64,000 nucleotides of DNA from Pseudonocardiaceae bacterium (GCA_036503065.1 DASXXM010000151.1:2539-66538), one strand, 5' to 3'. Positions 3,137-55,427 are shown, counted from the stretch's first letter. Notes: generated by a model from the letters alone, not told the origin. Numbers and translations are program-made.

Positions 3137-3161
3137 GATTCTCCTCTTTGCTTCGTTGTGG

Positions 3162-9901: not shown

Positions 9902-9986
9902 CTGGTGCCCTCCGGTCGTCCAGCAGTGCGGCGCATCCGCAACGTATCGTTTCGTGCTTCGTTCGGCAAATCTCGTTCGGTCCTAA

Positions 9987-12611: not shown

Positions 12612-12613
12612 CC

Positions 12614-24881: not shown

Positions 24882-25502
24882 TCAGGTGATCAGTGGCCAG
24901 AGTTGCTCGGCGGCGGAGCCGCTGTCGACGAAGTGAATGGCATGCCACCCAGCGGCTTCGGCGCCGACGCAGTTGTCAAGCACGTCGTCGATCAGCACGC
25001 ACTCAGCGGGCCGGACCCCTGCCCGTATGGCCGCAAGACTGAAGATCTCCTTGCTCGGCTTGCGAGCGCCCACCTCGAAGGACAGCACCACGTGATCGAA
25101 CAACTCGTCCGCATCGACCATTCGGCGCCAGTACTTGTCCCAGGTCGGGACCATGTTGGACATCATGCTGACACCAACACCCTGATGCCGTACCGCGCGT
25201 AGTGTGTCGATCCATTCCTGATTCGCCGGGCGGCCGTCGAACCACGCCTCGCCGAAACTGCTGACGTGGATGGGCCTGCCCAATGCCTCGGACATGTACC
25301 CCAACCATTCCTGCTCGCCGACCAGTGGGGTGTCCAACGGCTCAAGAATGTCCGACGTGCCATATCGGGCGCTGACCGTCGCCGCGGCACGCAGGAACTC
25401 GCTCCGGTCGAGCCCGTGCGTTGCGCAGAACGCGGCAAGACTGTCCGCGACCGGAGGGGTCAGGACGCCGCCGAAGTCGGTCCACACCGCACTGACGTTC
25501 AT
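24882..25502 (-). CDS. HAD-superfamily hydrolase (possible phosphatase)
   Basis: 206 aa. Motif I is WTDFGGVL; the second Asp of DxD is replaced by Gly. Late motifs are KPSKEIF and LIDDVLDN. ATGA overlap with the AfsA-like gene. Confidence 0.75.
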   Translation of the reverse strand: MNVSAVWTDFGGVLTPPVADSLAAFCATHGLDRSEFLRAAATVSARYGTSDILEPLDTPLVGEQEWLGYMSEALGRPIHVSSFGEAWFDGRPANQEWIDTLRAVRHQGVGVSMMSNMVPTWDKYWRRMVDADELFDHVVLSFEVGARKPSKEIFSLAAIRAGVRPAECVLIDDVLDNCVGAEAAGWHAIHFVDSGSAAEQLWPLIT

Positions 25503-26497: not shown

Positions 26498-26498
26498 G

Positions 26499-26876
26499 CT
26501 ACGCGCCGCCGAACATGTACAGCGCGGTGATCTTGCCGGCGTCATCGCGGATGAGGAAGTCCCGACCCGTTCGGAGGATGTTGCCGCTGGCGTCCGCGAT
26601 GTCCCACTCCTGCTGGATCGAATCGTGGTTGGTCACCGTGTTACCGAAGCCGAAGACGAAACCCGCCCCTTGGATCTGCTCCTTGTTCACTTGGGCGATG
26701 TTCGCCTCGATCTCGTCGATGCCCGAGAAGCGGAGGTTCTCCCCCGCCACGTGGTGCACGGCGGATTCGGCGAAGACGTTGTGCACCAAGGCATGACGAC
26801 GTTCATCGTCGTGCGTCCGCCAGGCCTCGAGAAGATCACCCATGAGTTCTTTGGCTTCCATTTTCTTTCCTTTCAT
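26499..26876 (-). CDS. NTF2/SnoaL-like fold protein
   Basis: About 125 aa (MKGKKMEAKELMGDLLEAW...). It is a clear paralogue of 27710..28069: they share AVHHV, IDANIAQV/IEANIAQV and GRDFxxxDDxGxIxALYMF. Confidence 0.7.
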   Translation of the reverse strand: MKGKKMEAKELMGDLLEAWRTHDDERRHALVHNVFAESAVHHVAGENLRFSGIDEIEANIAQVNKEQIQGAGFVFGFGNTVTNHDSIQQEWDIADASGNILRTGRDFLIRDDAGKITALYMFGGA

Positions 26877-32366: not shown

Positions 32367-32630
32367 ATGTCTGCTGCACTGTCCGGGTACGACCGAAAGT
32401 CGGTCGAGGAATTCGTCATCGAGCAGGTCGAGGCGACCGGCGCCGACCCCGACCTGATCGCCACCACGGCCACCCTCGAATCGCTCGGCCTCGACTCGCT
32501 GGACGTGGTTGAACTCAGCCAGGGCGTCAAGAAGCAGATGGGGATCCCGGTGAGCCCGAAGGACTTCGTCGACGCGCTGACCATCTCCGACGCGATCGCG
32601 GTCATCTGCCGTCAGGCGGGTATTCAGTGA
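32367..32630 (+). CDS. acyl carrier protein
   Basis: 87 aa, with AAGGGG upstream as RBS. The phosphopantetheine site is LGLDSLDVVEL. Confidence 0.85.
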   Translation: MSAALSGYDRKSVEEFVIEQVEATGADPDLIATTATLESLGLDSLDVVELSQGVKKQMGIPVSPKDFVDALTISDAIAVICRQAGIQ

Positions 32631-33832
32631 TTCGACGGGTGGTCGTCACCGGCATTGGCGCGGTCACCCCGCTCGGCATCGGAGCCGACACGTTGCACCT
32701 GGCCGCCGTGCGTGGCGACAGCGGGATCGTCGACGGCGTCGGTCGGTGCCGGGACTTCGACGCGGCGAAGCTGCTCAGCCGCCGCGAGGCGCATCGGATG
32801 GACCGCTTCAGCCAATTCGCCGTCGTCGCCGCGGACGAAGCCGTCGAACAGGCGGGCTGGGCCGGCGCGCCGCCGGTGCCGGCCCAGCGGGTGCCGTGCG
32901 TGATCGGCACCGCGATCGGCGGCCTCAGCACCATCGAGTCGCAGCTCGAGACACTGCGCATCGAGGGTGCCGAGTACGTGTCGCCGCTGACCGTGCCGAT
33001 GCTGATGGGCAATGCCGCCGCGGCACAGCTGTCGATGCGGTACGGCCTGCGCGGCGAAGCCTCCGCGCTGGTCGCGGCGTGCTCCGGCGGGGCGCAGGCC
33101 ATCGTGGCGGGTGTCCGCGCGATCCGCTCCGGCGAGGCCGACGCGGCACTCGTCGGCGGCGCGGAGGCCGCGATCACCGAGTTCACCATGGCGATCTTCA
33201 CCGCTGCCGGCGCGCTGTCGCCGAGCGGGCGATCGGTGCCGTTCGACCGGAAGCGGGACGGCTTCCTACTCGGCGAAGGTGCCGGCGTCCTGGTACTCGA
33301 AGAGGCCGAGGTGGCGCGGGCACGGGGCGCCCGGGTGCTCGGCGAGATCCTGGGCTACGGCGTGACGACCGACGCCTACCACGTGACGGCCCCCGAGCCC
33401 TCCGGCGTCGCGGCCGCGGCCGCGGTGCGCGCCGCACTGGCCGACGGCGGGATCGACGCAGGCCAGGTTGCGTACATCAACGCGCACGGGACCGGCACGG
33501 CACTCAACGACAGCGCGGAGGTGAACGCGTTGCGTGCCGCGCTCGGCGACGCGCTCGCCGGCATCCCGATCTCCTCGACCAAGTCGTATCTCGGCCACCT
33601 GATCGGCGCGGCGGGCGCGGTCGAGGCGATCGCGACGCTACAGGCGCTCCGGCACCGGATCGCGCCACCGACGTGCGGACTCACCGAACCCGACGAGGCC
33701 CTCGGCGAGCTCACGCACGTACCGGCGGCACTGCCACTGGCACGGTCCGGTGCCGACCGTGTCGGGTTGACCAACTCGATGGGCTTCGGCGGTCACAACG
33801 TGACCATCGCGATCAGGGCGTGGGAAAGATGA
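32627..33832 (+). CDS. beta-ketoacyl-ACP synthase II (FabF-type, Cys-His-His)
   Basis: 401 aa with a GTGA overlap onto the ACP gene. Motifs are VAACSGGAQAI, INAHGTGT and KSYLGHLIGAAG. Confidence 0.85.
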   Translation: MIRRVVVTGIGAVTPLGIGADTLHLAAVRGDSGIVDGVGRCRDFDAAKLLSRREAHRMDRFSQFAVVAADEAVEQAGWAGAPPVPAQRVPCVIGTAIGGLSTIESQLETLRIEGAEYVSPLTVPMLMGNAAAAQLSMRYGLRGEASALVAACSGGAQAIVAGVRAIRSGEADAALVGGAEAAITEFTMAIFTAAGALSPSGRSVPFDRKRDGFLLGEGAGVLVLEEAEVARARGARVLGEILGYGVTTDAYHVTAPEPSGVAAAAAVRAALADGGIDAGQVAYINAHGTGTALNDSAEVNALRAALGDALAGIPISSTKSYLGHLIGAAGAVEAIATLQALRHRIAPPTCGLTEPDEALGELTHVPAALPLARSGADRVGLTNSMGFGGHNVTIAIRAWER

Positions 33833-34827
33833 GCGTAGACGTCAGCGACTTGCCGAGACAGCTCAATTGGCCGATGCCCGAGCCGGAACTGCTCGGGATG
33901 CGCAACACGACAACCGTCGATCGGCGCCTCGCGCACAAAGAATCCACCGAACAGGTGTTCATCAACGACGTGGCGCGCGACGGTGAAACGCTCGTCGCGC
34001 TCGGTGAACTACCGCGGTCGCACCGGTTCTTCAATGATTCCGCGATACCGCGCTACGACGCGTTGCTGCTCGCCGAGTTCATTCGACAGGGTGTCGAGGT
34101 CATCGCACACGCGTTGCTCGATGTGCCGCTGACCAGCCAGTTCGTCCTACGTTCGGTAGAACTGGAGCTGGTCGACCGACAGGCGACGGTGATCGGTGAC
34201 CGGGCGATGCCGGTTGTCGTCGCGCTGCCCGCCAGTCAGGTGCGGCGCAATCGCGGCGGCATGGCATACGCGGCGACCGGGCCGGTGTACTGCTTTATCG
34301 ACGGCCGCCCGGCCGCGCGGTTCGGCGGCAAGGTCGGATTCCTGGCCTGTGACACCTACGGCGAAATCCGTGCGGCCGCACCGCTCGGCGTGCCGGGTGG
34401 CTCGGTTGCCGCGTGCGAGCCGCGGGCCGTCGGCAGGCAGTTCCGGGAGAACGTCTTCATCGGCAGGCCGTGGGGATATCCGCGCGGGGCGAAGTGCCTT
34501 GTCGTGCCGCGGCCGCATCCGGCCTTCTTCGACCGGCCGCTGGACCACTACCCCGGCATGATGCTCGCCGAGGCGGCACGCCAACTGGCCGCGAGTTCGC
34601 TGGCCGCGGACGCGCACGTCCCGATCTCGTCCGTGTGCACGGACTATGCCGCCATGGACTTCGTGTCCTTCGCCGAACTCGACACGTCGCCGACTTTGAC
34701 GGTGGTCGACTGGATCGACCTTGACGACGGCGCCGAGCTGACGGTCACCGCCCGGCAAGGCGCCCGCACCATGTCGACGTACACCTTCCGGATGTTCCAC
34801 GACGACTACAGCGAGGATCGGTCATGA
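33829..34827 (+). CDS. AfsA/ScbA-family butenolide/gamma-butyrolactone synthase, second copy
   Basis: Starts at MSVDVSDLPRQ with an ATGA overlap. Signatures are HKESTEQVFINDV...SHRFFNDS and FFDRPLDHYPGMMLAEAARQL. It is hidden inside the artefactual 693-aa ORF 32746..34827. Confidence 0.8.
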   Translation: MSVDVSDLPRQLNWPMPEPELLGMRNTTTVDRRLAHKESTEQVFINDVARDGETLVALGELPRSHRFFNDSAIPRYDALLLAEFIRQGVEVIAHALLDVPLTSQFVLRSVELELVDRQATVIGDRAMPVVVALPASQVRRNRGGMAYAATGPVYCFIDGRPAARFGGKVGFLACDTYGEIRAAAPLGVPGGSVAACEPRAVGRQFRENVFIGRPWGYPRGAKCLVVPRPHPAFFDRPLDHYPGMMLAEAARQLAASSLAADAHVPISSVCTDYAAMDFVSFAELDTSPTLTVVDWIDLDDGAELTVTARQGARTMSTYTFRMFHDDYSEDRS

Positions 34828-35798
34828 CGGCGATCGTGTCCGGGGTCGGCGCCGCGCTGCCCGAGACGGCAGTGGACAACGACGCGTTCGGGGCGCTCGG
34901 CGTCACCGATGAGTGGATCGTCGGCCGAACCGGGGTTCGGCGGCGCTACTGGCTCAAGCCGGACGAGCGACTTGTCGACCTCGCGGCGGCGGCGAGTGCG
35001 ACCGCACTGGCCGACGCCGGGGCCGACGCCGCGGACGTGGACTTCGTGATCGCCGCGACGACGACACCCGACCGCGTCTCACCGGGACTGGCGCCCGAGA
35101 TCGCCCATCTGCTCGGCATTCCGCGGGCCGGCGCGGTCGATATGAACGGGGCGTGCACGGGCTTTCTCTATGCCCTGGACTATGCGCTGAATCGGGTCGA
35201 GGCCGGCTCCGCGGATCGCATTCTCGTCATCGGCGCCGATGCCATGTCACGGATCACCGACGAGTCCGATCGCAATACGGCGGTGCTGTTCGGCGATGCC
35301 GCGGGGGCGGTCGTGGTCGAGGCGGCACGGGGCGCCGCTTGCGACGGCTGCGCCCAGTACCTGTCCTTCGGATCGGCGGGCGAGCACGCCGATTCGCTGT
35401 GCGTGGACCGGGAAACCGGGGTCGTGCGAATGGACGGGGGCGAGGTCTACGCGTACGCCGTTGACGCGATGGCGAACGAGATCGAGGCGGTGCTGCTCGC
35501 CTGTGAGGTCGAACAGGACGATGTCGACCTGCTGGTGTGTCACCAGGCCAACAGCCGGATCGTCAACGCCGTCGCGCGGCGACTGAAATGGGGCGTCGAC
35601 CGCGCCGCCTGTTACGTGGATCAGTTCGGGAACACCTCGTCGGCGTCCATTCCGGTGGCCATGTGGCAGGCGCAGGCCGACGGCAGGCTCAAGCCGGGGC
35701 ACCGGGTCGGGCTCAGCGCCTTCGGGGCCGGATTCACCTGGGGCGCGGGCGTCATCAACTGGAAAGGGTGCGGTCACGCGGGTCAGCAGGCCGGCTGA
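34824..35798 (+). CDS. beta-ketoacyl-ACP synthase III (FabH-type)
   Basis: 324 aa. The Cys-His-Asn triad contexts are MNGACTGFLYAL, LVCHQANSRI and FGNTSSASIP. Confidence 0.85.
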   Translation: MTAIVSGVGAALPETAVDNDAFGALGVTDEWIVGRTGVRRRYWLKPDERLVDLAAAASATALADAGADAADVDFVIAATTTPDRVSPGLAPEIAHLLGIPRAGAVDMNGACTGFLYALDYALNRVEAGSADRILVIGADAMSRITDESDRNTAVLFGDAAGAVVVEAARGAACDGCAQYLSFGSAGEHADSLCVDRETGVVRMDGGEVYAYAVDAMANEIEAVLLACEVEQDDVDLLVCHQANSRIVNAVARRLKWGVDRAACYVDQFGNTSSASIPVAMWQAQADGRLKPGHRVGLSAFGAGFTWGAGVINWKGCGHAGQQAG

Positions 35799-35837
35799 TC
35801 AGAAATAGCCCAGCACAGACCGAGGGAGCGGAGTGAA

Positions 35838-36902
35838 GTGCTTAATCTGGATCACCTGAACGGCTCGGACCACATGCCCGGTTCGACGGCCGCAACCGCG
35901 TTGTCGGTCCGCGATGACGAGGAGACGATACTGCTGCGCGGCTACCGGGCCATGGTCATCGGCCGCCGGTTCGACCAGCAGGCGACCAACCTCGCCAAGC
36001 AGGGTTATCTTGCGGTGTATCCCTCGTCGTACGGACAGGAAGCCTGCCAGATCGGCGCGGTGTCGGCACTGCGTGCGACGGACTGGCTGTTTCCCACGTA
36101 TCGCGACTCGATGGCCATCGTGACGCGAGGCGTCGACCCGGCGCAGACCCTGACTCTGCTGCGCGGTGACTGGCACTGCGGCTACGACCCGGCAGCCACG
36201 CGCACCGCGCCGCACTGCACGCCACTGGCCACCCAGGCATCGCACGCCGTCGGGCTGGCCATGGCGGCGCGACTGGCGGGTGACGACACGGTTGCCGTCG
36301 TGCTCTGCGGCGACGGCTCCACGAGCGAGGGCGACTTCCACGAGGCGGTCAACCTGGCGGCCGTGTTCGCCGCACCCGTGGTGTTCCTGGTGCAGAACAA
36401 CGGATATGCGATCTCGGTCCCGCTGGCCAAGCAGACCAGGGCGCGCTCGCTCGCGGCGAAGGCGCCCGGCTACGGCATCCCGGGGGTCCAGATCGACGGC
36501 AACGACCTGCCCGAGGTGTACGCGGCGATGACGGCGGCCGTCGAGTTGGCGCGCGGCGGTGGCGGGCCCACCCTGATCGAGGCGATCACCTACCGCGTCG
36601 GACCGCACACCAACGCCGACGACCCGTCCCGCTATCGCGACGAGGCCGAGGCACTCGCGTGGCGGCGCAAGGACCCGATCGATCGGCTCGGCGCCACCCT
36701 GCGCGCACGTGGCCTGCTCGACGACGACCTGCAGCAGGCGATCGACGCCGATGCCGAGGAGTTCGCGGCACGGACCCGGCGCACGGTGATCGAGTACCCC
36801 GCGCCGACGGCCGCGGAGATGTTCGCGCACGTGTACGCCGCGTTGCCACCACACCTGGCCGAGCAGGCCGACCGCTACGGCCGCGAAGGCGGTGCCGCAT
36901 GA
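35838..36902 (+). CDS. 2-oxoacid dehydrogenase E1 alpha subunit (BCKDH/PDH type, ThDP-dependent)
   Basis: 354 aa with a GTG start after GAGGGAGCGGAG. The ThDP motif region is CGDGSTSEGDFHEAVNLAAVFAAPVVFLVQNNGYAIS. Confidence 0.85.
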   Translation: MLNLDHLNGSDHMPGSTAATALSVRDDEETILLRGYRAMVIGRRFDQQATNLAKQGYLAVYPSSYGQEACQIGAVSALRATDWLFPTYRDSMAIVTRGVDPAQTLTLLRGDWHCGYDPAATRTAPHCTPLATQASHAVGLAMAARLAGDDTVAVVLCGDGSTSEGDFHEAVNLAAVFAAPVVFLVQNNGYAISVPLAKQTRARSLAAKAPGYGIPGVQIDGNDLPEVYAAMTAAVELARGGGGPTLIEAITYRVGPHTNADDPSRYRDEAEALAWRRKDPIDRLGATLRARGLLDDDLQQAIDADAEEFAARTRRTVIEYPAPTAAEMFAHVYAALPPHLAEQADRYGREGGAA

Positions 36903-37918
36903 CAACGGATGTCGCGTCCACTGTGGACGTCAAGCAGAGGGTTGCCACGGTTTCCATGGTCAAGGCGATCAACACCGCGTTGCGCGACGCGATGCTCGCG
37001 GACGACCGCGTGGTGATGTTCGGCGAGGACGTCGGCCGACTCGGGGGCGTGTTCCGGGTGACCGAGGGACTTTCCGCACGGTTCGGCGATGAGCGCTGTT
37101 TCGACACGCCGATCGCCGAGGCCGGGATTCTCGGCGCGGCGATCGGTATGGCCGTCTACGGCGCCCGGCCCGTGGTGGAGATGCAGTTCGACGCGTTCGC
37201 CTACCCCGCGTTCGAACAGATCATCAGTCACCTGGCCAAGATGCGGAACCGGACGCGGGGCGCGCTCAGCACGCCGGTCGTCGTGCGGGTGCCCTACGGC
37301 GGCGGCATCGGCGCGGTGGAGCACCACAGCGACTCGTCCGAGGCCTACATGACGCACACTCCCGGGCTGCACATCGTGACACCGGCCACGGTGTCCGACG
37401 CGTACGGCCTGTTGCGGCAGGCGATCAGGGGCGCGGACCCGGTGCTGTTCTTCGAGCCGAAGCGCCTGTACTGGGACACCGAGGAACTCGCGTTGCCGGT
37501 CGAAGTGGAGCCGATCGGCCGGGCCGTGGTACGCAGGCCCGGCACCGACGTCACCCTGATCACGTACGGGCCCGCGCTGCCGCTGGCGCTGGCGGCCGCG
37601 GACGCCGCCGCGGAGGCCGGTTACGACGTGGCCGTGGTCGATCTGCGGTCGCTGGTGCCGTTCGACGAGGACACCGTGTGCGATGCGGTGACGAAGACCG
37701 GTCGCGCCGTGGTGGTGCACGAGGCATCGGGATTCGGCGGGTTCGGCGCGGAGGTGGCCGCTCGGGTGACCGAGCGGTGCTTCAACTATCTGGAGGCGCC
37801 GGTGCGCCGGGTGACCGGACTGGACGTGCCGTACCCGCCGCCGCAGTTGGAACGCTTCTACCTGCCGACCGTCGGCCGAATCCTGGACGCCATCGCGACC
37901 ACGTTCGGAGATTCGTAA
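36899..37918 (+). CDS. 2-oxoacid dehydrogenase E1 beta subunit
   Basis: 339 aa with an ATGA overlap. Motifs are FGEDVGRLGGVFRVTEGL and DTPIAEAGILGAAIGMA. Confidence 0.85.
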   Translation: MTTDVASTVDVKQRVATVSMVKAINTALRDAMLADDRVVMFGEDVGRLGGVFRVTEGLSARFGDERCFDTPIAEAGILGAAIGMAVYGARPVVEMQFDAFAYPAFEQIISHLAKMRNRTRGALSTPVVVRVPYGGGIGAVEHHSDSSEAYMTHTPGLHIVTPATVSDAYGLLRQAIRGADPVLFFEPKRLYWDTEELALPVEVEPIGRAVVRRPGTDVTLITYGPALPLALAAADAAAEAGYDVAVVDLRSLVPFDEDTVCDAVTKTGRAVVVHEASGFGGFGAEVAARVTERCFNYLEAPVRRVTGLDVPYPPPQLERFYLPTVGRILDAIATTFGDS

Positions 37919-46478: not shown

Positions 46479-47225
46479 GTGATTCCGTTGTCCACGAAGC
46501 GCGGCGCCGCACTGCGGACCGTGGCGCTCAGTGCCGGTTACGGCGGCCGGCCGGTCGTGCACGGCGTGTCGATCGACGTGGCGCCCGGCCAGGTGGTGTC
46601 CATCGTCGGGCCCAACGGTTCCGGCAAGTCGACGCTGCTCAAAGGGATCGTCGGCGTGGTGCGGGTGTTGTCCGGCCAGGTGCTGCTCGGCGGTGCCGAC
46701 ATCACGAACCGGCCGCCGGAGTTCGTCGCCCGCGCCGGGGTGGGTTACGTCCCGCAGGTGGACGACGTGTTCGGGCCGCTCTCGGTGCGGGAGAACCTGG
46801 AGATGGGCGGCTACCTGTTGCGCGGCAAGGAGATCCCCGGCCGGATCGACAGGGTGATCGGCTACTTTCCCGCGCTGGGCCCGTTGCTCGGCCGGCGGGC
46901 CGGCAAGCTGTCCGGCGGGGAACGGAAGATGCTGGCGATGGGCCGGGTGCTGATGCTGCAGCCCGCGCTGTTCGTGCTCGACGAGCCGACGGCGAACCTG
47001 GCGCCCGCGATCGCCAGGCGGCTGCTGCACGAGCACGTGCGCCAACTGTCCGTGGACGGCGCGTCGGTGCTCATCGTGGAGCAGCGCGCCAAGGCGGTAC
47101 TGGAGATCTCCGACCACACCTACGTGCTGGCCGGCGGCCGGCTGCGGATGGCGGGGAGTCCGGCGGAACTGGCCGACAGCCCGGAATTCGTCAGCTCCTT
47201 CCTGGGTGGCGGCCCGACGCTGTGA
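46479..47225 (+). CDS. livF: ABC ATPase (LivF-like)
   Basis: The track ORF is 46437..47225. The in-frame GTG at 46479 lies just after the upstream stop. Motifs are GPNGSGKST and LSGGERKMLAM. Confidence 0.8.
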   Translation: MIPLSTKRGAALRTVALSAGYGGRPVVHGVSIDVAPGQVVSIVGPNGSGKSTLLKGIVGVVRVLSGQVLLGGADITNRPPEFVARAGVGYVPQVDDVFGPLSVRENLEMGGYLLRGKEIPGRIDRVIGYFPALGPLLGRRAGKLSGGERKMLAMGRVLMLQPALFVLDEPTANLAPAIARRLLHEHVRQLSVDGASVLIVEQRAKAVLEISDHTYVLAGGRLRMAGSPAELADSPEFVSSFLGGGPTL

Positions 47226-47274
47226 CATGGCGCGCTGGCGCGCGCGGGTCGTCGGGTCTGGGATCATCGTCGCC

Positions 47275-47895
47275 ATGGCAGCAGCGTTTCCGTACCGGCA
47301 GGTTCGGGCGGAGCACGACGACGACACGATCACCGTCTACCAGGCCTACCCGCCCGGCATCGCCGATGCCGCGCTCGCGGCCGGCACCTTCGTGGCGCCG
47401 TTCAAACGGGAGCGGATGACCTGGATCAAGCCGTCGTTCCTGTGGATGGCGTACCGCTCCGGCTGGGCCGGTAAGCCCGGCCAGGAACGGGTGCTCGCGG
47501 TGCGCCTGCGCCGGGACGGCTTCGCCTGGGCGCTGGCGCATTCCTGCCTGAGCCACTACGACCCCGACACCCACGCCGACCAGGCAGCCTGGTCGCGACG
47601 ACTGCGCGAGTCGCCGGTGCGCATCCAGTGGGATCCGGAACGGGGCCTGCACCACGAACCGCTGGCCCACCGGGCCATTCAGGTCGGCCTGCGCGACGAT
47701 GCCGTGCACCGCTACGTCGACGAGTGGATCGTGTCGATCGCCGACCTGACCCCACTCACCAGGACGATCGCCGACCTGGTCGAGATAGGCCGCCTGGACG
47801 AGGCCCGCGCGCAGCTGCCGGCGGAGCCGGCCTACCCGCTGCCCGCGGACCTCGCCGAGATCATCGGCGCGACCCCGGTCACGGATCGACGGTGA
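47275..47895 (+). CDS. DUF4291-like protein
   Basis: Starts at MAAAFPYRQVRAEHDDDTITVYQAY. It contains MTWIKPSFLWMAYRSGWA. Confidence 0.6.
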   Translation: MAAAFPYRQVRAEHDDDTITVYQAYPPGIADAALAAGTFVAPFKRERMTWIKPSFLWMAYRSGWAGKPGQERVLAVRLRRDGFAWALAHSCLSHYDPDTHADQAAWSRRLRESPVRIQWDPERGLHHEPLAHRAIQVGLRDDAVHRYVDEWIVSIADLTPLTRTIADLVEIGRLDEARAQLPAEPAYPLPADLAEIIGATPVTDRR

Positions 47896-48385
47896 CCAGG
47901 CGCGCCCCGGCCGCGCGCAGCAGCCACTCCAGCGAGCCGACCGGCGCAGGCCAGGTGTCCACCTGGATCCGGATGCGCAACCGCGTCGCGTCGCGGACTT
48001 CGGCGTCCCACCAGAACCAGTGACGATCGTCCGGATCGAACCAGAAGATCCAGTCGCCGACCGACCACGGCTTCTCGCTCGCCGCGTCGGCAAGCCGTTC
48101 CTGGTACGACATCGCCTCCCACCGTGCGCGATACCGCTCGACCTCGTCCGGAGTCGGCTCCGGTGCGCTCGCGGCCACGAACCAGTCCGGCAGCAGCGCC
48201 ACCCATTCCTCGTCGGTGGGCCATTCGCCGTCGGAGTGGTCGAGCACGACGGTCAGCACCTCGCGGCACCGGGCGAGCACCTGCGCCGCGTCGTCGCACA
48301 CCGCGTCCACCGCGACCAGGTTCCCATCCGGTTCTTCGCCCGGAAGCGGCCCGTCGACCACGCGCCGCCGCTCATCGGCCGTCAT
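47879..48385 (-). CDS. candidate immunity protein for the Rhs C-terminal toxin
   Basis: 168 aa. It starts 10 nt downstream of the Rhs stop on the same strand. It is acidic and Trp-rich (WSVGDWIFWFDPDDRHWFWWDAEV) with no signal peptide. The call is made by position only. Confidence 0.55.
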   Translation of the reverse strand: MTADERRRVVDGPLPGEEPDGNLVAVDAVCDDAAQVLARCREVLTVVLDHSDGEWPTDEEWVALLPDWFVAASAPEPTPDEVERYRARWEAMSYQERLADAASEKPWSVGDWIFWFDPDDRHWFWWDAEVRDATRLRIRIQVDTWPAPVGSLEWLLRAAGARLVTVDP

Positions 48386-48395
48386 CGCCAGTCCC

Positions 48396-51300
48396 TCACG
48401 TGTTCTCGGGGACGAAGCCGTCCCACACCTTGCCGCTGCCCGGGATGATCGCGCCGCGCAGCGCGTCCAGGTGGCTCGAACGCAGACCGTACTGGTCGTC
48501 GGCCTTGGTCGGGTCGGCGATCACCGGTCTGGTCTTGCCGGGGTCGATTCGCTTGATGTCCCCCTCGCTGACCGCCTGCTGCCGAATCCCGTCGACGTAG
48601 CTGGCGGGCACCTGGAACGACTTGATCTGCGCGCCCTCCGCCCCCTGGTCGTAGCGCTTCTGCAGATACTCGTTGGCGCGCTTGGCCGAACCGAAGTTCA
48701 GGTAGAGCATCTTGTCCTGCGGGACCGTCGCGTTCCCCTGCGCGTCGACGTTCAGCAGGATGTTGCCCTCCTTGCCCTTGACCACTTTGCCGTCCGGGCC
48801 GACCTTCGGCGGCACCTCCACCCGGTACACCGTGGTGGTCTTGTTCGGACATTCCTCCGGCGCCAGTCCGCTGGGGTCGATCCAGTTGGTCGGGTTGGGC
48901 ACGTACGCACGCGGGTTCGGGCTCGGCTGAAGGCCGAGCGGGTCCGTCGACGCGTAGCGGCCGGTCACCGGGTCGTAGTAGCGCTGCAGGTTGTAGTGCA
49001 GGCCGGTTTCCGGGTCGTGGTACTGCCCCGGAAAGCGCAGCGGCGTGTACACCGCGCCACCGGCGGCCTGCGCGCCCCAGAGGTTCGGCCTCGGCAGTTC
49101 GGCCAGATTGCCGTCGGTGTCGACCAGTTCGGTCGGGGTGCCGACCAGATCGGTCACGATGGCGTAGAACTGCTGGTCGACCCAGTTCGCGGGCGCGTCC
49201 CGCAGGGCGGCGCGCTCGCGCTGGCACAGCGCCCGGTAGCTGCCGGGGTCCCAGTCCCACACCGTGGCCCGGCTGCCGTTGTGCACCTGTTCGATCAGCT
49301 CGTTGCCGTCCCAGGTGAACTCGGTCTGTTCGAGCACGCCGACCCCGTCGGGCGCGAGGCGCTGCTTGGCGATCCGGCGGCCGAACACGTCGTAGCGGTA
49401 GCGCCAGCGCTGCCCGTCCGGCGTGCGCACCGCGACCAGCCGGTCGTCGGAATTCCAACTGTAGTGCCAGTTCTGCGGCGCGGCGGACAGGGTTTTGCGC
49501 TGCCGCAACACGATCCGACCCTCGGCGTCGTGCTCGTAGCGCAGGTTGCCGGCACGGGTGACCAGCGTGCCGGTGTAATCGCGTTGGCCGGCCCCGTCGG
49601 TCGCCTGGCCGGGCCCGGCGCCGGGCCAGTCCGCCCTGGTGATGTTGCCGGCCGGGTCGTAGTCGTAGCGTTCCGACCATCCCGTGCCACGGACCGCGGT
49701 GATCCGGCCGGCCGGATCGAGGTCGTAGCCGCGCGGGCCGGCGAGCTGATCCGCAACGCCGGCCAGGAAGCCGTCCTGGCGGTAGTGGTAGGCGCGCCGC
49801 TGCATGGTCCGCTGCGGCGTCGAACCACCGCCGGCCAGCACGGCCTGTGCGGTCAGGCGGTTGTTGGCGTCCCAGGTCTGGGTCAGCCGGACGCCCGCGC
49901 CGAGCTGTCGTTCGACCTCGCGGCCTGCCGCGTCGTAGCCGAAGCGGATGGTTCGGCCCGCCGTGTGCAGCGCGACCGGCCTGCTGTCGGCGTCGTACTC
50001 CCACCCGCTCTCCGCGCCGGACGGCGTCCGGCGCCGCACCCGCCTGCCGAGCACGTCGTACGCGGAGGCGACCACCCTGCCGTTGACGGTCTCGGTCAGC
50101 GGCCTGCCCAGCGGGTCGTAGCTGAAGGCCACCTCCGCGTCGGCGTTGCGGGCCAACAGGATTCGCCCAGCCGGATCGTAGCCGAATGTACTGATCTCGT
50201 CGGCTGCCGCACGGCGCACCAGGCGACCCATCGGGTCGTAGTCGTACCGCGTTGTCTGTCCGGCGCCGTCGGTGTGCGCGACGAGCTGCCCGGCCGCGTC
50301 GTGCTGGTAGCGCCGCACGCGGCCGTTGAAGTCCGTCTCGGCCATCATGTTGCCGGCCGCGTCGTACTCGTACCGCCAGACGAGGCCCTGTTCGTTGGTG
50401 ACCGAGACCAACCGCAGTTCGGTGTCGTATTCGTAGCCGAGCCTGCTGCCGTCCGGCCGGATCTCGGTCACCGGCAGGTCGAAGTGCGCGATCTCGGTGC
50501 GGGTGACATTTCCTTGCGGGTCAACGGTTTCCCGCAGGTTGCCCTCGCCGTCGTAGACCCACCGCTCGACCGTGCCGTCCGGCTGACGACGACGCAGCGG
50601 CTTGCCCTCGACGGTCCAGGACATCGTGGTCACCCCGCCGAGCGGATCGGTGACCGCGGTCATCCGGCCGAACCGGTCGTAGGCGTAGCGGGTGGTCGCG
50701 CCGAGCGGATCGGTGACCGCGACCGGCAGGCCGACCGGACCGACCTCGAACCGCGTGGTGTTGCCCAGCGCGTCGGCGACCGCGGTCAGGTGACCGTGCT
50801 CGTCGTAGTCGTAGGTGGTGCGTGCGCCGGTCGGGTCGACCAGGGTGCCGAGCAGGCCGTCCGCCTGCCGGTACGCCCTCCCCCACACGGCGCCGTCCGG
50901 CTCGACGGTGGTGACCGGACGGCCCTGCGTGTCGTACTCGGTGATCGTCTGGGTGCCATCCGGCTGGGTGACGCGGGTGACGTTGCCGATCTCGTCGTAG
51001 TCGTACCGGACTGTTCGGCCGAGCGGATCAATGCGCGAGCGCAGGTTGCCGTAGCGGTCCCAGACGGACCGGGTCGTTGCGCCGAGCGGGTCGGTTTCCG
51101 CTGTCACGCGGAAGTTCTCGTCGAGCTGATAGGTGCTTGTGTGGCCGAGTGAGTTGGTCGCGGTGGTGGTCCGGTTGCCGGCGTCGTCGACCTGGTAGCC
51201 GAAGGCGTAGCTGAGGTAGTCCCCGGCGCCCCACGCCCGTACGCAGCGGTCCCGTTCGTCGTAGGCGTAGCGGTACCACATGCCGTTGCGGTCGTCCCAC

Positions 51301-52427
51301 CGGATGATCCGGGCTGCCTCGTCGTAGCCGAACCGCAGTGGCTGTCCGGCGGAGTTCAGCACCTCGACCAGGTTGTCCGCGTCGTCGTAGCGGTAGCTGA
51401 CCAGACCGAGGTCGCCGGTTTCGCCGTTGTCGCCCGTTTCGCGGCCGAGCAGCCGCAGCGCGGTGATCCGGCCGTGCTCGGTGCTCACCCCGATTCGGTA
51501 GCCGCCGGAGTGCCGGATCTCGGTCGGCACCCCGGCGGTGTCGCGGTCGATGTCGATGCGATGACCGTTGCCGTCCGCGACGGCCTCGATCAGGCCGCTA
51601 CCGGCGAAATGCCAGACCTGGTCGGTCGACTGCTGGGCGATGGCGTAGCCGGTGTCGGTGCGCACCAACGGCCAGCGCGGTCCCTCGACCGGCAGGACCG
51701 CCGTCCCGTCCGCCGGGATCGGGTAGACCAGCAGCGTGCCGTCGGCGACCGCGAGGTGCACGCCGTCGTCCGCGACCTCAAGCCGCTGGTCCACAGTGGA
51801 CGCCCAGGACCGACCGAACGACCGGCCGAGCCGGTAGCCGGACAGGTGCGTGCGGGCCAGGATCAGGGGCAGCGCGCCTGCCAGGTCGACGTCCACCTGG
51901 GTCAGGCTCATGCGGCCGGTGGACAGGTCGACCGGGTCGCCGCACGAGGGCCGGTCCTTGGTCGGCGTGGCGTTCGCCTTGGGCGCGGTGTTGTGGTCGG
52001 AGATCTTCGGCTCGTGCGACGACGGCTTGGTGACCCCGGAACTGCCGGGGGCGGAGCCGTTGTGGGCGGCGCCGGCCGGCTTCGGCTCGTGGCTCGGCTT
52101 GTCCTTCGGGCTCAGTCCGCGGAACACGTCGGCATGATGGTCGTCGTTGTTGCGGTGGTTCTGGCCGTTGGAGTGCAGGTTCTTGCCGGCACGCGACGCC
52201 CAGCCGCCGCCCTCGCTGAACACCTTGCCGGTGATCTCGGTGCCGCGGCCCAATCCCTTGGTGAGCGCCGCGCCAAAGCCGGACTGGTCCCCCTTGGCCG
52301 AGTTGACCATGTTCTGCCCGGCGGTTTCCAGTTTCTTGCCACCCTCGGCGAGCTTCGTGCCGAAGTCGGCCAGCTTCCCGCCGGAACTCGACAGGTGCGA
52401 AGGGGTGATGTCGAATCCGTCGCTCAT
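48396..52427 (-). CDS. Rhs/YD-repeat polymorphic toxin
   Basis: 1343 aa. The N-terminal ~110 aa are helical. A DUF6531-like CGDPVDLSTGRM follows, then many YD units (YDYDEHGHLT, YEYDAAGNMM, YRYDVFGRRI). The core-end motif is NWIDPSGL, followed by a 155-aa C-terminal extension. Confidence 0.9.
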   Translation of the reverse strand: MSDGFDITPSHLSSSGGKLADFGTKLAEGGKKLETAGQNMVNSAKGDQSGFGAALTKGLGRGTEITGKVFSEGGGWASRAGKNLHSNGQNHRNNDDHHADVFRGLSPKDKPSHEPKPAGAAHNGSAPGSSGVTKPSSHEPKISDHNTAPKANATPTKDRPSCGDPVDLSTGRMSLTQVDVDLAGALPLILARTHLSGYRLGRSFGRSWASTVDQRLEVADDGVHLAVADGTLLVYPIPADGTAVLPVEGPRWPLVRTDTGYAIAQQSTDQVWHFAGSGLIEAVADGNGHRIDIDRDTAGVPTEIRHSGGYRIGVSTEHGRITALRLLGRETGDNGETGDLGLVSYRYDDADNLVEVLNSAGQPLRFGYDEAARIIRWDDRNGMWYRYAYDERDRCVRAWGAGDYLSYAFGYQVDDAGNRTTTATNSLGHTSTYQLDENFRVTAETDPLGATTRSVWDRYGNLRSRIDPLGRTVRYDYDEIGNVTRVTQPDGTQTITEYDTQGRPVTTVEPDGAVWGRAYRQADGLLGTLVDPTGARTTYDYDEHGHLTAVADALGNTTRFEVGPVGLPVAVTDPLGATTRYAYDRFGRMTAVTDPLGGVTTMSWTVEGKPLRRRQPDGTVERWVYDGEGNLRETVDPQGNVTRTEIAHFDLPVTEIRPDGSRLGYEYDTELRLVSVTNEQGLVWRYEYDAAGNMMAETDFNGRVRRYQHDAAGQLVAHTDGAGQTTRYDYDPMGRLVRRAAADEISTFGYDPAGRILLARNADAEVAFSYDPLGRPLTETVNGRVVASAYDVLGRRVRRRTPSGAESGWEYDADSRPVALHTAGRTIRFGYDAAGREVERQLGAGVRLTQTWDANNRLTAQAVLAGGGSTPQRTMQRRAYHYRQDGFLAGVADQLAGPRGYDLDPAGRITAVRGTGWSERYDYDPAGNITRADWPGAGPGQATDGAGQRDYTGTLVTRAGNLRYEHDAEGRIVLRQRKTLSAAPQNWHYSWNSDDRLVAVRTPDGQRWRYRYDVFGRRIAKQRLAPDGVGVLEQTEFTWDGNELIEQVHNGSRATVWDWDPGSYRALCQRERAALRDAPANWVDQQFYAIVTDLVGTPTELVDTDGNLAELPRPNLWGAQAAGGAVYTPLRFPGQYHDPETGLHYNLQRYYDPVTGRYASTDPLGLQPSPNPRAYVPNPTNWIDPSGLAPEECPNKTTTVYRVEVPPKVGPDGKVVKGKEGNILLNVDAQGNATVPQDKMLYLNFGSAKRANEYLQKRYDQGAEGAQIKSFQVPASYVDGIRQQAVSEGDIKRIDPGKTRPVIADPTKADDQYGLRSSHLDALRGAIIPGSGKVWDGFVPENT

Positions 52428-53179
52428 TGTGTTCCCCCGGTTGGCACGCCCTGACCGGTGATGACCGAATCCGCGGTGCCGAGCGGATTGGTGGCGATGT
52501 TCTGCGCCGCCCCGGAAAGCTGCTGCTCGGACTGTTGCACGCCCTGCGAGAAGCCGGATTGCCCGGCGCCGGCGACCGCGCCGAGATCAACGCCGCTGTG
52601 CGTGCCCAGCGCGTCGCCGAGCAGTTGACCGGCCAGATTGCCGGCCGCACTCTCCAGCGCCGCGAAGATCGGTCCCTCCACGATCTGCGTCAACTGCTGT
52701 TCGACCGCCTGCACGGCCTGCTTGAGCGCCTGTTTGACGATCTGCTCCGTGAACGCCGTCTGCGCCGCGGCCAGTGCCTCCGACGCGCCGAAGGTCTCGA
52801 CCGCGGCCGCCTGGTCGGCGATGATCTCGACGGCCAGAATGCCGAGCTGCACGATCGCGGCGACCTTCATGCCCTCGATGACCACCGCCGAGATGTCAAG
52901 GCCGGTGCCGAGCAGTTTCAGGCCCTCCCCGAGTTGGGGCAGGTGCCCGTTGGCCACCTTCTGCCACAGCGCGTTGAAATTGTCCAGCGACTGCGCCTTG
53001 TTGACCCCGAGCATCTGCTCGATCTCGGATTTCGCGGCCCCGTTGTTGCTGTCCAACTCACCGGCGAGTTGCCGCATCTGGTTCGCCGTGTCCCGCAACT
53101 GGTCCTCGTCGATGTTCGGCCAGGTGACCCCGATGAGGTTGAGCACCCAGGCCAGTTCCGACGGCAGCACCACGCCCAT
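52424..53179 (-). CDS. WXG100-like / CpnT-N-terminal-like T7SS-associated protein
   Basis: 251 aa. The N-terminus LPSELAWVLNLIGVTWPNIDEDQLRDTANQMRQLAGEL recurs at the N-termini of actinobacterial T7SS-linked toxins. A hydrophobic helix AAIVQLGILAVEII follows. ATGA overlap with the Rhs start. Confidence 0.6.
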   Translation of the reverse strand: MGVVLPSELAWVLNLIGVTWPNIDEDQLRDTANQMRQLAGELDSNNGAAKSEIEQMLGVNKAQSLDNFNALWQKVANGHLPQLGEGLKLLGTGLDISAVVIEGMKVAAIVQLGILAVEIIADQAAAVETFGASEALAAAQTAFTEQIVKQALKQAVQAVEQQLTQIVEGPIFAALESAAGNLAGQLLGDALGTHSGVDLGAVAGAGQSGFSQGVQQSEQQLSGAAQNIATNPLGTADSVITGQGVPTGGTQ

Positions 53180-53185
53180 GCCGGC

Positions 53186-53794
53186 TCACCAGCTCCTGTC
53201 GTCCAGGACCGAGTCGGCCCCGTCGGTGTCGTCCGGTGGCCGCGCCTGACGGACCGGCTCTGAATGGTCCGGCCGCGCGTCCGACGGCACGTTGCCGGAC
53301 GGAAACGGGCTGTCGGACGGATCGGTCGCGGTGTGCGGCACGGCCGGCACGGCCAGCCGGTCCGGGCTCAGCTCCGGGTACGCCCGCGCCGCCGCCGCCA
53401 ACACGCCCGCTCCGGGCGCCCGCACCGGCGCCATCGTCTCCGACACCCGCGCCCTGGCCTGCGCGGCGGCCGCCTGGATGGTGGCGACGGTCGCCTGGGC
53501 CAGTTTCTCCGGCGTGCTCCGGTCGAACGCCGACGGCGCGAACACCAGCGAGGTCACCACCCCGGTCGCGTCCACGACGGCACGCACCGAGCCGTCCCGC
53601 GAGCTCGCCGCCGCGGTGGTGGCCAGCGCGCTCTGCTGCGCCTGCCGGACCGCCGCCAGCTTGTCGCGCAGCCCACCGAGTACCTCATCGGCCGCGCCAC
53701 GCAGCTCGGCCACCCGCGCCTGCTCCGCCGCGAGATCGAACTCCACCACGACCCTGCTCCCCTGCTCGATCCGTTGCTGTCTGTGATTGAACAC
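53186..53794 (-). CDS. YbaB/EbfC-fold protein (EspL-like, T7SS-associated)
   Basis: 202 aa with a GTG start. The core SRDGSVRAVVDATGVVTSLVFAPSAF is YbaB-like. The tail is Pro/Asp-rich. Confidence 0.55.
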   Translation of the reverse strand: MFNHRQQRIEQGSRVVVEFDLAAEQARVAELRGAADEVLGGLRDKLAAVRQAQQSALATTAAASSRDGSVRAVVDATGVVTSLVFAPSAFDRSTPEKLAQATVATIQAAAAQARARVSETMAPVRAPGAGVLAAAARAYPELSPDRLAVPAVPHTATDPSDSPFPSGNVPSDARPDHSEPVRQARPPDDTDGADSVLDDRSW

Positions 53795-53948
53795 GTGTGA
53801 CGTGGCGCGCGGCCGCGCGGTTCCCCCAAAAGGCCGACGATCACCTGAACGGGGCGCACCCGACGCGATACCTCCTGTTCATCTGCGGGCCAGCGGGCGC
53901 TCGCCGTTCGGCGCCGAAACGTCACCGGGTCGTGCGAAGGTGAGTGCC

Positions 53949-55427
53949 ATGCGCTCGATCAACCGCCGCAGGTTTCTCAGCGACACCGGCAAGATGCTGG
54001 CGGTCGGCGCCGCCGCCGCGGGCGCCGTCGGCACGGCCGGGGCCACCGCGGGCGCCGCCGCCCTACCCGCTGCTGCCCTGCCGAACCAGGCCGCCGCGCT
54101 GCGCGCCCTCGGCCGCCGCACGTTGCGCCTGCCCGGTGCCCTACCGCGGCCCGAACTGCCCGCCGGCACCGACCTGTTGCCCGGCATCGACCACATCGTG
54201 GTCCTGATGCTGGAAAATCACTCGTTCGACAACATCTTCGGCATGCTCGGCCGTGGCGACGGCTTCACCCTGCGGCACGGCAGGCCCACCGCGACGAACC
54301 CGTACCCCGACGGACGGACCCAGCACGCGTTCCACATGCCGACCACCTGCCAGCTGCCCGCGCGGCCCAGCCAGGAGTGGACGGCCAGCCACAACGCCTA
54401 CCACAACGGCGCCAACGACGGCTTCGTCAGCACGCCGATCAGCCCGGCCACCACCGAGCTCGTCGGTGGCGTCGCGATGGGCTACTGGACCGGCGAGGAC
54501 CTGCCGTTCACCTACAGCCTGGCGCGCGCCTTCCCCATCGCCGACCGCTGGTTCAGCTCGCTGCTCGGCCAGACCCACCCCAACCGGCGCTACCTCATCG
54601 CCGGCACGTCCGTCGGCCTGACCGCCACCGTCAATCCGACGACACCGGCCGGCATGGCGCAACTCACCTCACCCGTGCCACCGGCCGGGACGATCTTCAA
54701 CCAACTGGACAGCCACGGCATCAGCTGGGCCAACTACGCGGCGCTCCTCCAGTTCGGCGCCACGCCGGAACTGTTCCCGATCAACGACGCGGCCACGGAA
54801 GCCGCCCACCAGAAGCCGTTCGCGCAGTTCTTCGCAGACGCGGCCGCGGGCACCCTGCCGGCGTTCAGCCTGCTCGACCCCGACTACAGCACCCAGTCGC
54901 AGGAGAACCCGGAGAACATCGTCGTCGGGGAGGCGCTGTTGGCGCAGGTCGTGCACGCGCTCGGGGCCGGGCCGCAGTGGCCGCGGACGCTGTTCGTCCT
55001 GACGTACGACGAGCACGGCGGCTACTACGACCACGTGCCGCCGCCCCCGGCCCTGCCGCCCGACGCGTTCCCGCCACTGGTCTTCCCTGGTGAGTCCACC
55101 TACGACGGCTTCGCCCGCTACGGATTCCGGGTGCCCACGGTCGTGGTGTCCCCGTATGCCAGGCGCAACCACGTCAGCCACCGCGTCTACGACCACACGT
55201 CGATCCTCGCGATGGTGCAACGCAAGTGGAACCTGCCCGCGCTCACCTTCCGCGACGCCAACGCCCACGACCTGACCGACTTCCTCGACCTGGACGCGTT
55301 GGAGGACCGCAGGCCGACCTTCCGAACGCTGCCCAGGCTGGCCGCACCGGGCAACACACCGGCCGCATTGGCCTGCTCGACCACCGGCCCCGGCACCATC
55401 CCGCCACCAGGGTCCATCAGCGGCTGA
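53949..55427 (+). CDS. phosphoesterase-family phospholipase C / acid phosphatase, Tat-secreted
   Basis: Starts at MRSINRRRFLSD (twin-arginine). Motifs are HIVVLMLENHSFDNIFG and LTYDEHGGYYDHV. Confidence 0.85.
   Translation: MRSINRRRFLSDTGKMLAVGAAAAGAVGTAGATAGAAALPAAALPNQAAALRALGRRTLRLPGALPRPELPAGTDLLPGIDHIVVLMLENHSFDNIFGMLGRGDGFTLRHGRPTATNPYPDGRTQHAFHMPTTCQLPARPSQEWTASHNAYHNGANDGFVSTPISPATTELVGGVAMGYWTGEDLPFTYSLARAFPIADRWFSSLLGQTHPNRRYLIAGTSVGLTATVNPTTPAGMAQLTSPVPPAGTIFNQLDSHGISWANYAALLQFGATPELFPINDAATEAAHQKPFAQFFADAAAGTLPAFSLLDPDYSTQSQENPENIVVGEALLAQVVHALGAGPQWPRTLFVLTYDEHGGYYDHVPPPPALPPDAFPPLVFPGESTYDGFARYGFRVPTVVVSPYARRNHVSHRVYDHTSILAMVQRKWNLPALTFRDANAHDLTDFLDLDALEDRRPTFRTLPRLAAPGNTPAALACSTTGPGTIPPPGSISG

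Follow-up and report, generated by a model that had tools for sequence, protein, structure and literature searches.

An Rhs toxin-immunity operon with a conserved targeting module in a Pseudonocardiaceae genome

A 64,000-nucleotide stretch of DNA from a Pseudonocardiaceae bacterium (GCA_036503065.1, DASXXM010000151.1:2539-66538), referred to here as the window, carries a four-gene operon that is, with near certainty, an Rhs toxin-immunity locus fitted with a conserved actinobacterial targeting module. The operon encodes, in order, a YbaB-like protein, an all-helical partner of the WXG100_2 family, an Rhs protein whose C-terminal tip is a toxin domain, and a small immunity protein. The N-terminal domain of the Rhs protein and the WXG100_2 partner recur with other payloads in other actinomycetes, and the toxin and immunity genes are inherited together across phyla. 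Export of the Rhs protein probably depends on an ESX-type type VII secretion system (T7SSa) encoded elsewhere in the genome. All positions are counted from the first letter of the window, and related loci are numbered with the prefix L.

Results

The operon and its Rhs protein

The operon consists of four co-oriented open reading frames (ORFs) on the minus strand, at 53186-53794, 52424-53179, 48396-52427 and 47879-48385. By these coordinates the YbaB and WXG100_2 genes are separated by 6 nt, the WXG100_2 and Rhs genes share a 4-nt ATGA overlap and the Rhs and immunity genes stand 10 nt apart, an arrangement that agrees with a preliminary description of this DNA. GC content at third codon positions is 0.88-0.92 in all four ORFs, as for real genes, in DNA of ~70% GC. 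Families were assigned with a 2025 copy of Pfam and with NCBIfam release 20.0.

The third gene encodes an Rhs protein of 1343 aa. Its shell matches DUF6531 (PF20148, E=1e-19) and, in 16 stretches, RHS_repeat (PF05593, E=5.7e-96) in Pfam, as well as TIGR01643 (E=2e-88) and the Rhs-associated core (Rhs_assc_core, TIGR03696, E=9.4e-24, aa 1117-1188) in NCBIfam. The translated core reads ...STDPLGL...NWIDPSGL and is followed by 155 residues, which autoproteolysis at a putative site after DPSGL would free as the toxin. The protein had been described as lacking a Sec signal, and a simple hydropathy scan (not SignalP) revealed neither a Sec nor a Tat signal: the Kyte-Doolittle average over 19 residues (KD19) does not exceed -0.07 anywhere in the first 63 aa, and a twin-arginine is lacking.

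The targeting module recurs with other payloads

The first ~105 residues of the Rhs protein are 42-86% identical to the N-termini of other actinomycete toxins, and a local hidden Markov model (HMM) of this N-terminal domain matches the toxins of L045, L046 and L047 at E=1e-21 to 1e-46. In other actinomycetes the domain heads many Rhs proteins with differing tips and also short toxins (TNT, YwqJ deaminase). Saccharothrix variisporea carries a YbaB-like gene, a WXG100_2 gene, a 423-aa toxin and a UCP033725 immunity gene, and Kutzneria albida (L045, CP007155.1) has the order YbaB, WXG100_2, 398-aa toxin, UCP033725. The same two helper genes precede a 1425-aa Rhs protein with a different C-terminal domain in L046. 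A WXG100_2 gene is followed by a YwqJ-deaminase toxin in Amycolatopsis acidicola (L047), and by an XOO_2897 deaminase and a SUKH-4 immunity gene in Kitasatospora.

A metagenome scan with the N-terminal domain returned 15 loci. Ten encode full-length Rhs proteins (~1280-1390 aa), among which several different C-termini occur, and four end at a contig edge, with three of these (L028, L035 and L041) already entering Rhs repeats. L031 (4980-6014) encodes a 345-aa fusion of the N-terminal domain to TNT (E=1.8e-31). The system is polymorphic: L029, L030, L032, L036-L040, L042 and L046 combine the N-terminal domain and the Rhs core with several C-termini. The N-terminal domain is encoded at 25 loci in all, and in 18 of them the immediately preceding gene is a WXG100_2 gene.

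Several of these relatives have features of their own. The L031 protein amounts to a 'mini-CpnT' with no WXG100_2 part either in cis or in an adjacent gene. In L009 a frameshift between targeting domain and shell divides the Rhs orthologue in two (2382-2867 and 2692-6435), and an FtsX-type permease takes the upstream place of YbaB and WXG100_2; this is either a decaying copy or a long-read error. The DNA closest to the window is that of L008, at ~90% identity. L008 and L009 (CAVPCF010000020.1, CAWACW010000014.1) are metagenome-assembled genomes (MAGs) titled 'Candidatus Melainabacteria bacterium' that carry this high-GC, actinomycete-type Rhs operon, 68-93% identical to that of the window and with DUF4291 in synteny, and their taxonomic label or binning looks wrong.

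A dedicated helical partner precedes the toxin gene

The second gene matches PF25547 (WXG100_2; E=1.9e-10; score 41.3 bits, cut-off 27; model positions 11-146 of 150). Its product had been called WXG100-like. The PF25547 match supports this, but at 251 aa, without the W-x-G motif and with scores below the cut-offs of both PF06013 (14.6 bits vs 27.3) and TIGR03930 (15.4 vs 44.85), the protein falls outside the canonical WXG100 family. We found 203 homologues, stand-alone and mostly of ~225-300 aa, in Pseudonocardiaceae (Kutzneria, Saccharothrix, Amycolatopsis) and in Kitasatospora. PF25547 is present in all but one of the 119 homologues listed, and UniRef names the family 'Outer membrane channel protein CpnT-like N-terminal domain'. 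The seven longest homologues inspected contain no toxin domain and end in low-complexity tails. The comparison indicates a dedicated stand-alone partner family that is itself no toxin, and the initial reading of this gene through the N-terminus of a T7SS-linked toxin has to be given up to that extent.

Residues 99-117 of the partner (window 52829-52885) form a hydrophobic helix, VVIEGMKVAAIVQLGILAV, which is conserved in the family and comes near the threshold for a membrane segment (KD19 1.98); a link to the channel activity that has been ascribed to the N-terminal domain of CpnT is possible. A protein that looked like a natural fusion of YbaB and WXG100_2 (P0029) turned out to be without the conserved N-terminus of WXG100_2; we attribute it to a probable deletion or assembly artefact and left it out of the evidence.

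Table 1. Features of the operon and its immediate surroundings (window coordinates)
Feature	Position	Strand	Basis and remarks
ECF-sigma-type promoter-like motif GGAACCG-N15-CGTC (GGAAC-N17-CGTC)	53799..53824	-	sequence read; 75 nt upstream of probable YbaB start
YbaB/EbfC-family (EspL-like) accessory gene	53186..53749	-	PF02575; 187 aa, acidic proline-rich C-terminal tail
WXG100_2 / CpnT-N-like all-helical partner, 251 aa	52424..53179	-	PF25547; ~215-aa core and variable low-complexity tail
Rhs N-terminal targeting domain, aa 1-105	52113..52427	-	conserved in other toxins; motifs GKVFSEGG and HRNND (aa 91-95)
Pro/Ser/Lys-rich low-complexity linker, aa 106-162	51942..52112	-	translation; no family match
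Rhs shell: DUF6531 plug (aa 163-235), YD/RHS repeats, Rhs-associated core (aa 1117-1188)	48864..51941	-	Pfam/NCBIfam
C-terminal toxin domain, aa 1189-1343, 155 aa after DPSGL	48399..48863	-	family without Pfam model
Cognate immunity gene, 168 aa, acidic, Trp-rich, no signal peptide	47879..48385	-	adjacency to toxin domain
DUF4291 gene	47206..47895	+	PF14124, E=8.8e-73; convergent with immunity gene, 17-nt 3' overlap

Export is probably ESX-dependent

Several observations connect the module to ESX systems. A gene for EspG (PF14011, E=5.8e-53) lies directly upstream of the Rhs gene in L029 (4122-4907), and in K. albida (L045, 5979-8990) the neighbour of the YbaB/WXG100_2/toxin module is a divergent operon that encodes PPE and EspG together with DUF3558 and a 103-aa helical protein. 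The N-terminal domain itself ends at a [YH]xxx[DE]-like position, read as HRNND in the window and as YEEAD or YRESD in three relatives, which resembles the YxxxD/E signal of PE and Esx substrates. The acidic +4 residue is invariant in 17 of 17 sequences, and the first residue is Y in 3, H in 9 and another residue in 5. The N-terminal domain of the relative L037 also gives a weak PE match (E=0.028) that stays below the cut-off. We consider it likely, going by these sequence features, that the Rhs protein is exported by a T7SSa encoded elsewhere in the genome. The signal would be a split PE/PPE-like one, with the short domain on the toxin and the long helical partner encoded separately.

A number of results weigh against this view. 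Within the window, a Pfam scan of 34 ORFs, which cover most of the 64 kb, found no EccB/C/D/E, MycP or Esx gene, just as the preliminary description had reported no secretion machinery in view, and EccB/C/D/E and MycP are likewise absent within 10 kb of L001, L003, L045, L046 and L047. The window's own motif at the [YH]xxx[DE]-like position has His in place of the canonical Tyr. Rhs aa 1-161 have no Pfam match at E<=10, and the N-terminal domain shows no significant similarity to WXG100, PE or LXG families; a profile search of the N-terminal domain against the PDB found nothing, and hhalign of this domain against WXG100_2 gave a probability of 1%. The AlphaFold2 (AF2) model of WXG100_2 is all-helical and of low confidence, with a predicted local distance difference test score (pLDDT) of 51, and its best-probability Foldseek match, PPE4, is non-significant (E~0.5). 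The domain also occurs without an upstream WXG100_2 gene in 7 of the 25 loci and YbaB is seen in six contexts, so neither helper is obligatorily linked to it. Finally, a folded Rhs shell measures ~86x65 Å (RhsA, as quoted) and the T7SS channel is estimated at ~30 Å (PMC10327511); the shell being much wider than the channel, export would need an unfolded or otherwise unusual route. The first description of the locus as T7SS-style therefore stands in part: a polymorphic Rhs operon with a recurrent WXG100_2 partner and with EspG or PPE beside its relatives is what we see, but the N-terminal domain lacks a significant WXG100 or PE match.

A profile search with the WXG100_2 alignment against PDB sequences gave noise only, and the BAR-domain and PPE4 Foldseek matches were both discounted, the model (pLDDT 51) being too poor.

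The Rhs protein might instead leave the cell without a T7SS, with the CpnT-N-like partner forming a membrane conduit or surface anchor, or through lysis or some other route that has escaped recognition; the WXG-like features would in that case be a legacy of ancestry shared with ESX substrates and not a sign of current use. The lack of ESX core genes in the window and beside five related loci fits this alternative, as do the hydrophobic stretch of the partner, the UniRef name referring to the outer membrane channel protein CpnT, and the size mismatch between shell and channel raised in the literature (PMC10327511). Yet T7SS toxin loci are commonly unlinked from their machinery, as with the cpnT operon and the LXG hotspots (PMC13491425, PMC10327511), EspG and PPE genes flank related loci, and the [YH]xxx[DE] position is conserved. 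We therefore judge a T7SS-independent exit to be quite unlikely and retain ESX-dependent export as the better explanation.

A YbaB-like gene heads the operon

The YbaB fold first assigned to the product of gene 1 is borne out by a match to PF02575 (YbaB_DNA_bd) well over the cut-off (E=1.8e-11, 44.5 bits vs 25.5, model positions 10-86 of 91); the label 'EspL-like' for YbaB proteins comes from the literature (PMC13491425). Its start needs correction from 53794. Judged from the sequence, translation most likely begins at the GTG at 53749, giving 187 aa, because this is where homologues start and a GGAG precedes it by 8 nt; the longer version is disfavoured because it overlaps both the divergent phosphoesterase ORF (53787-55427) and a promoter-like motif.

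YbaB orthologues occupy the matching position in L006, L008, L011, L001/L002, L035, L045 and L046, and the six independent contexts in which the gene is seen upstream are the window lineage, L011, L001/L002, L035, L045 and L046. When present, the gene always heads the operon and lies 6-9 nt from the WXG100_2 gene across distant genera. It is missing from the otherwise identical modules L036-L042, L047 and L003.

The promoter-like motif, GGAACCG-N15-CGTC, is found with equal 17-nt spacing upstream of the homologous operons of L006, L008, L045, L010, L009 and L011, which represent at least four further lineages. It occurs in 8 of 20 upstream regions, vs ~0.015 expected per region from a background of 0.053 per kb per strand. 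GGAACCG is identical to the SigM -35 element reported for the ESX-4 regulon of Mycobacterium abscessus (PMC13491425), a comparison that concerns the -35 half only. The motif is possibly a SigM-like promoter of the extracytoplasmic function (ECF) type.

Rather than a chaperone or co-secreted partner, the YbaB-like protein could control the operon, as a regulator that binds DNA or as a nucleoid-associated protein, which would leave our explanation of the other genes intact. The PF02575 family binds DNA, many otherwise identical modules do without the gene, and the conserved promoter-like motif lies just upstream. The constant first position at 6-9 nt from WXG100_2 speaks against a regulator, however, as do the long acidic Pro-rich tail, which is atypical of YbaB, and the SigM/ESX-4 regulon of M. 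abscessus, where YbaB/EspL-like genes head 2 of 15 operons (PMC13491425). We hold a regulatory role to be the less likely one, although a serious candidate.

The toxin domain belongs to a widespread family

The 155-aa toxin domain has no match in Pfam or among PDB sequences. A word-indexed search had returned a single homologue, and the idea of an orphan domain was ruled out by an exhaustive HMMER search, in which 459 representative clusters matched at E<=1e-3 and 208 still did so at E<=1e-10. In 147 of 150 proteins the domain occupies the C-terminus, and its carriers include Rhs, CdiA (TPS, Fil_haemagg, PT-VENN), PT-HINT and SpvB/TcdB proteins. The family consensus reads TVYRVEG..N.R..I...G.V.I.G...LFLNFG...RA..FL..R..QG..GA.IKSF.VP.SF.D.LR..AV.E......P..P..VD.TKA.DQFGLR..QI..L...II.GSG. 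Its motifs found no match in the 2012 Ntox catalogue, which does not in itself prove absence from that catalogue.

From 59 sequences, AF2 produced a confident alpha/beta model of the domain (pLDDT 91.6, predicted template modelling score 0.85). Foldseek found no significant neighbour for this model in the PDB and nothing in BFVD, and a profile search of the toxin alignment against PDB sequences gave noise only. The top PDB matches, all non-significant, are ADP-ribosyltransferases (ARTs): the RhsP2 toxin 7RT7 (E=0.077, probability 0.60, template modelling (TM) score 0.33-0.37), EcPltA and DarT1.

The toxin may be viewed as a divergent NAD+-dependent ART in which R-[Y/F]-Q takes the place of the triads R-S-E, H-Y-E or R-Y-E; it would then probably act on nucleic acid, like RhsP2. 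All PDB neighbours above noise are ARTs (7RT7, EcPltA, DarT1), and the order of conserved residues fits the predicted secondary structure of such an enzyme: an invariant Arg in the first strand (VYRVE), an aromatic residue and an NFG motif closing the second strand with a helix next, and a near-invariant Gln starting a later strand (DQ[YF]GL). In the window's protein the Arg is R1202 and the Gln, within DDQYGL, is Q1312. RhsP2 itself uses an R-Y-E triad (PMC12340436), and the ART-like DUF4291 adjoins the toxin-immunity genes in two lineages. Against this stand TM scores of 0.33-0.37 with E-values >0.05, which are not significant, the lack of any sequence or profile match to an ART, the catalytic position, where no Glu is conserved, a core with fewer strands than that of a canonical ART, and the empty BFVD search. 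We regard ART activity as unlikely.

More speculative still, the tip may be a new enzymatic toxin fold, possibly a strongly divergent NAD-dependent modifier of nucleic acid or protein, that is common to carriers of the type V (T5SS), type VI (T6SS)/Tc and T7SS types and is countered by two alternative immunity families. If this were true, the adjacency of DUF4291 might be functional, for instance in reversing or pre-empting the toxin's modification, as PARG does against RhsP2.

The immunity protein is inherited with the toxin

The fourth gene, which had been noted as a small acidic ORF in the immunity position, encodes a 168-aa protein with 35 D+E against 17 K+R. The family has no Pfam or PDB match, and a profile search against PDB sequences gave noise only. 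Of 20 genome loci, 16 have a homologue directly after the toxin domain; they span Actinomycetota, Enterobacterales, Orbaceae, Planctomycetota, Verrucomicrobiota, Spirochaetota, Chloroflexota, Bacteroidota and Fibrobacterota, and because of this cross-phylum adjacency we assign the 168-aa protein as the cognate immunity family of the toxin domain. The toxin-immunity pair of the window is also found on other carriers. In three beta-proteobacterial loci (L005/L023 7484-7813, L021 6414-6728 and L016 6369-6686), the toxin domain is paired with an unrelated 109-aa putative immunity family.

This co-inheritance also bears on the possibility that the locus is aimed at eukaryotes such as amoebae, fungi or nematodes, in the manner of Tc toxins or CpnT/TNT. 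Insecticidal Tc toxins do use Rhs/YD shells, the same toxin domain occurs on a SpvB/TcdB-type carrier, and relatives of the module carry TNT. Yet an immunity protein co-inherited with the toxin in 16 of 20 loci implies that the target is present in bacteria, and the toxin domain also sits on CdiA proteins, which mediate contact-dependent inhibition between bacteria. An anti-eukaryotic purpose thus appears improbable.

Surroundings of the operon

Downstream of the toxin operon lies a branched-chain amino-acid ABC (ATP-binding cassette) transporter operon whose last gene encodes DUF4291, a predicted ART-like family (PMC12522546). The order toxin-immunity-DUF4291 is kept in the window lineage (L008, L009, L010) and occurs independently in an Aquabacterium beta-proteobacterium MAG (L005=L023; DUF4291 at 7810-8391), where DUF4291 again converges on the pair and the immunity family is different. 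DUF4291 is absent from the other 15 genome loci searched, and no ADP-ribose-related family was found by Pfam among the ten genes downstream of immunity in eight other loci. With DUF4291 in only two independent lineages, we rejected DUF4291 or ADP-ribose genes as general companions of the toxin. In L043, DUF4291 follows ABC transporter genes. The gene appears to be the last one of the ABC-transporter operon, and its membership in the toxin system is doubtful.

The divergent genes upstream of the operon encode a phosphoesterase, a major facilitator superfamily transporter, a transglycosylase and a GH30 glycosidase. The phosphoesterase ORF (546 aa as drawn) probably starts further in, since its counterpart in the 95%-related contig L006 has 494 aa. 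The window contains no paralogue of any part of the module elsewhere in its 64 kb and no ORF of EccC size except Rhs. Three regions (6544-13801, 25499-26545 and 32627-37918) are rich in secondary metabolism, as is typical of actinomycete genomes, with stand-alone adenylation, peptidyl carrier protein and condensation genes of the nonribosomal peptide synthetase type and genes for an FkbM methyltransferase, a homologue of AfsA (gamma-butyrolactone synthase), a ketosynthase and branched-chain keto-acid dehydrogenase.

Discussion

We propose that the operon is transcribed from the divergent intergenic promoter, possibly in an ECF-sigma-dependent manner. The first ~105 residues of the Rhs protein would serve for targeting, as a short domain of PE-like type with HRNND, a [YH]xxx[DE]-type motif, at its end, and this domain would pair with the 251-aa CpnT-N-like/WXG100_2 protein in a PPE-like role. 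The helical bundle of this putative heterodimer would be the T7SS signal, a composite one that amounts to a CpnT N-terminus split over two proteins, and the YbaB/EspL-like protein would be an accessory factor or chaperone. The YD-repeat shell would enclose the 155-aa toxin, which, once released by autoproteolysis, may act in the cytoplasm of a competing bacterium, with ADP-ribosyltransferase-like activity as a weak lead. The cytoplasmic immunity protein would protect the producer.

The kind of locus is already known, and this one is a further member. In 2012 Zhang et al. (PMC3482391) tabulated T7SS-type toxins of firmicutes and actinobacteria that combine WxG/LxG/LDxD N-termini with RHS repeats, and a genetic link between Rhs and T7SSa has been cited (PMC11217815), so that calling the combination much less explored, as the preliminary description did, is only partly fair. 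In the literature searched, of which coverage was incomplete so that a negative is weak evidence, we found no description of the helper set (a YbaB-like protein and a stand-alone CpnT-N-like protein) together with the 105-aa domain, nor of the toxin and immunity families.

One close parallel is M. tuberculosis CpnT/TNT (esxF-esxE-cpnT-ift), which depends on ESX-4/ESX. PF25547, the CpnT-like N-terminal domain family, includes the 251-aa protein, and both loci have a helical toxin N-terminus, a C-terminal toxin and a downstream immunity gene and are unlinked from ESX machinery; the relative L031 even joins the N-terminal domain studied here to TNT. Unlike in CpnT, the PPE-like part is separate here, the toxin keeps only a short PE-like part and the payload sits in an Rhs shell. 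The helpers are YbaB-like and WXG100_2 proteins instead of the EsxE/EsxF pair, and the organism is a monoderm actinomycete. The targeting domain may be equivalent to the first ~95 residues of CpnT.

A second parallel is found in Listeria monocytogenes, where LrhA is an Rhs protein of the T7SSb with WXG100-like partners (Bowran et al. 2023, PMC10327511). As in LrhA and in LXG toxins with Lap factors, an Rhs protein without a Sec signal follows small helical WXG100-like partner genes and precedes an immunity gene, and a composite targeting signal has been proposed. However, LrhA is encoded in a Firmicute beside essC8, its partners are WXG100/helical proteins of ~100 aa with no YbaB or CpnT-N-like protein, and it shows no sequence similarity to the N-terminal domain described here; export is a proposal in both cases.

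Helper-dependent export of a non-Rhs toxin by a mycobacterial T7SSa was reported in 2026 for EatA of M. abscessus, and experimental proof that an actinobacterial T7SS exports an antibacterial toxin dates only from that work (PMC13444075). Like the Rhs protein as we picture it, EatA has an elongated helical N-terminal domain that binds separate accessory proteins (TapA1, TapA2), and an immunity protein (EatI). EatA differs in carrying a GH183 arabinanase that acts on the cell wall, in lacking an Rhs shell and in having two small Tap partners, and the likeness is one of description. The mycobacterial PE/PPE-EspG systems pair a short helix-rich partner of the YxxxD/E type with a longer helical partner of ~180-220 aa, much as proposed here, and EspG occurs beside related loci; unlike in PE/PPE, the window proteins have no significant PE or PPE match, the 251-aa protein has no WxG and His replaces Tyr.

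The T6SS Rhs effectors, P. aeruginosa RhsP2 (7RT7) and P. protegens RhsA, have in common with the locus a YD shell, an Rhs core with DPxGL and a variable toxin with immunity, and the ART toxin of RhsP2 is the nearest structural neighbour, if a weak one, of the toxin domain. Their delivery is by PAAR/VgrG and the T6SS, however, and their N-terminal regions are unrelated. No T6SS is known from actinomycetes.

How, or whether, an Rhs cage of ~150 kDa passes a T7SS is a question for which we found no study in the same incompletely covered literature, and the size problem has been stated explicitly for Listeria LrhA (PMC10327511). The present locus is one instance of an abundant soil-actinomycete module whose parts (YbaB-like protein, CpnT-N-like protein, 105-aa domain, shell, toxin and immunity protein) are separable. 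Its culturable carriers Kutzneria albida, Saccharothrix variisporea and Amycolatopsis acidicola offer possible test beds for the composite signal and for the role of the YbaB/EspL-like protein. The toxin and the immunity protein represent two widespread families that have neither a Pfam nor an NCBIfam model and merit definition as families.

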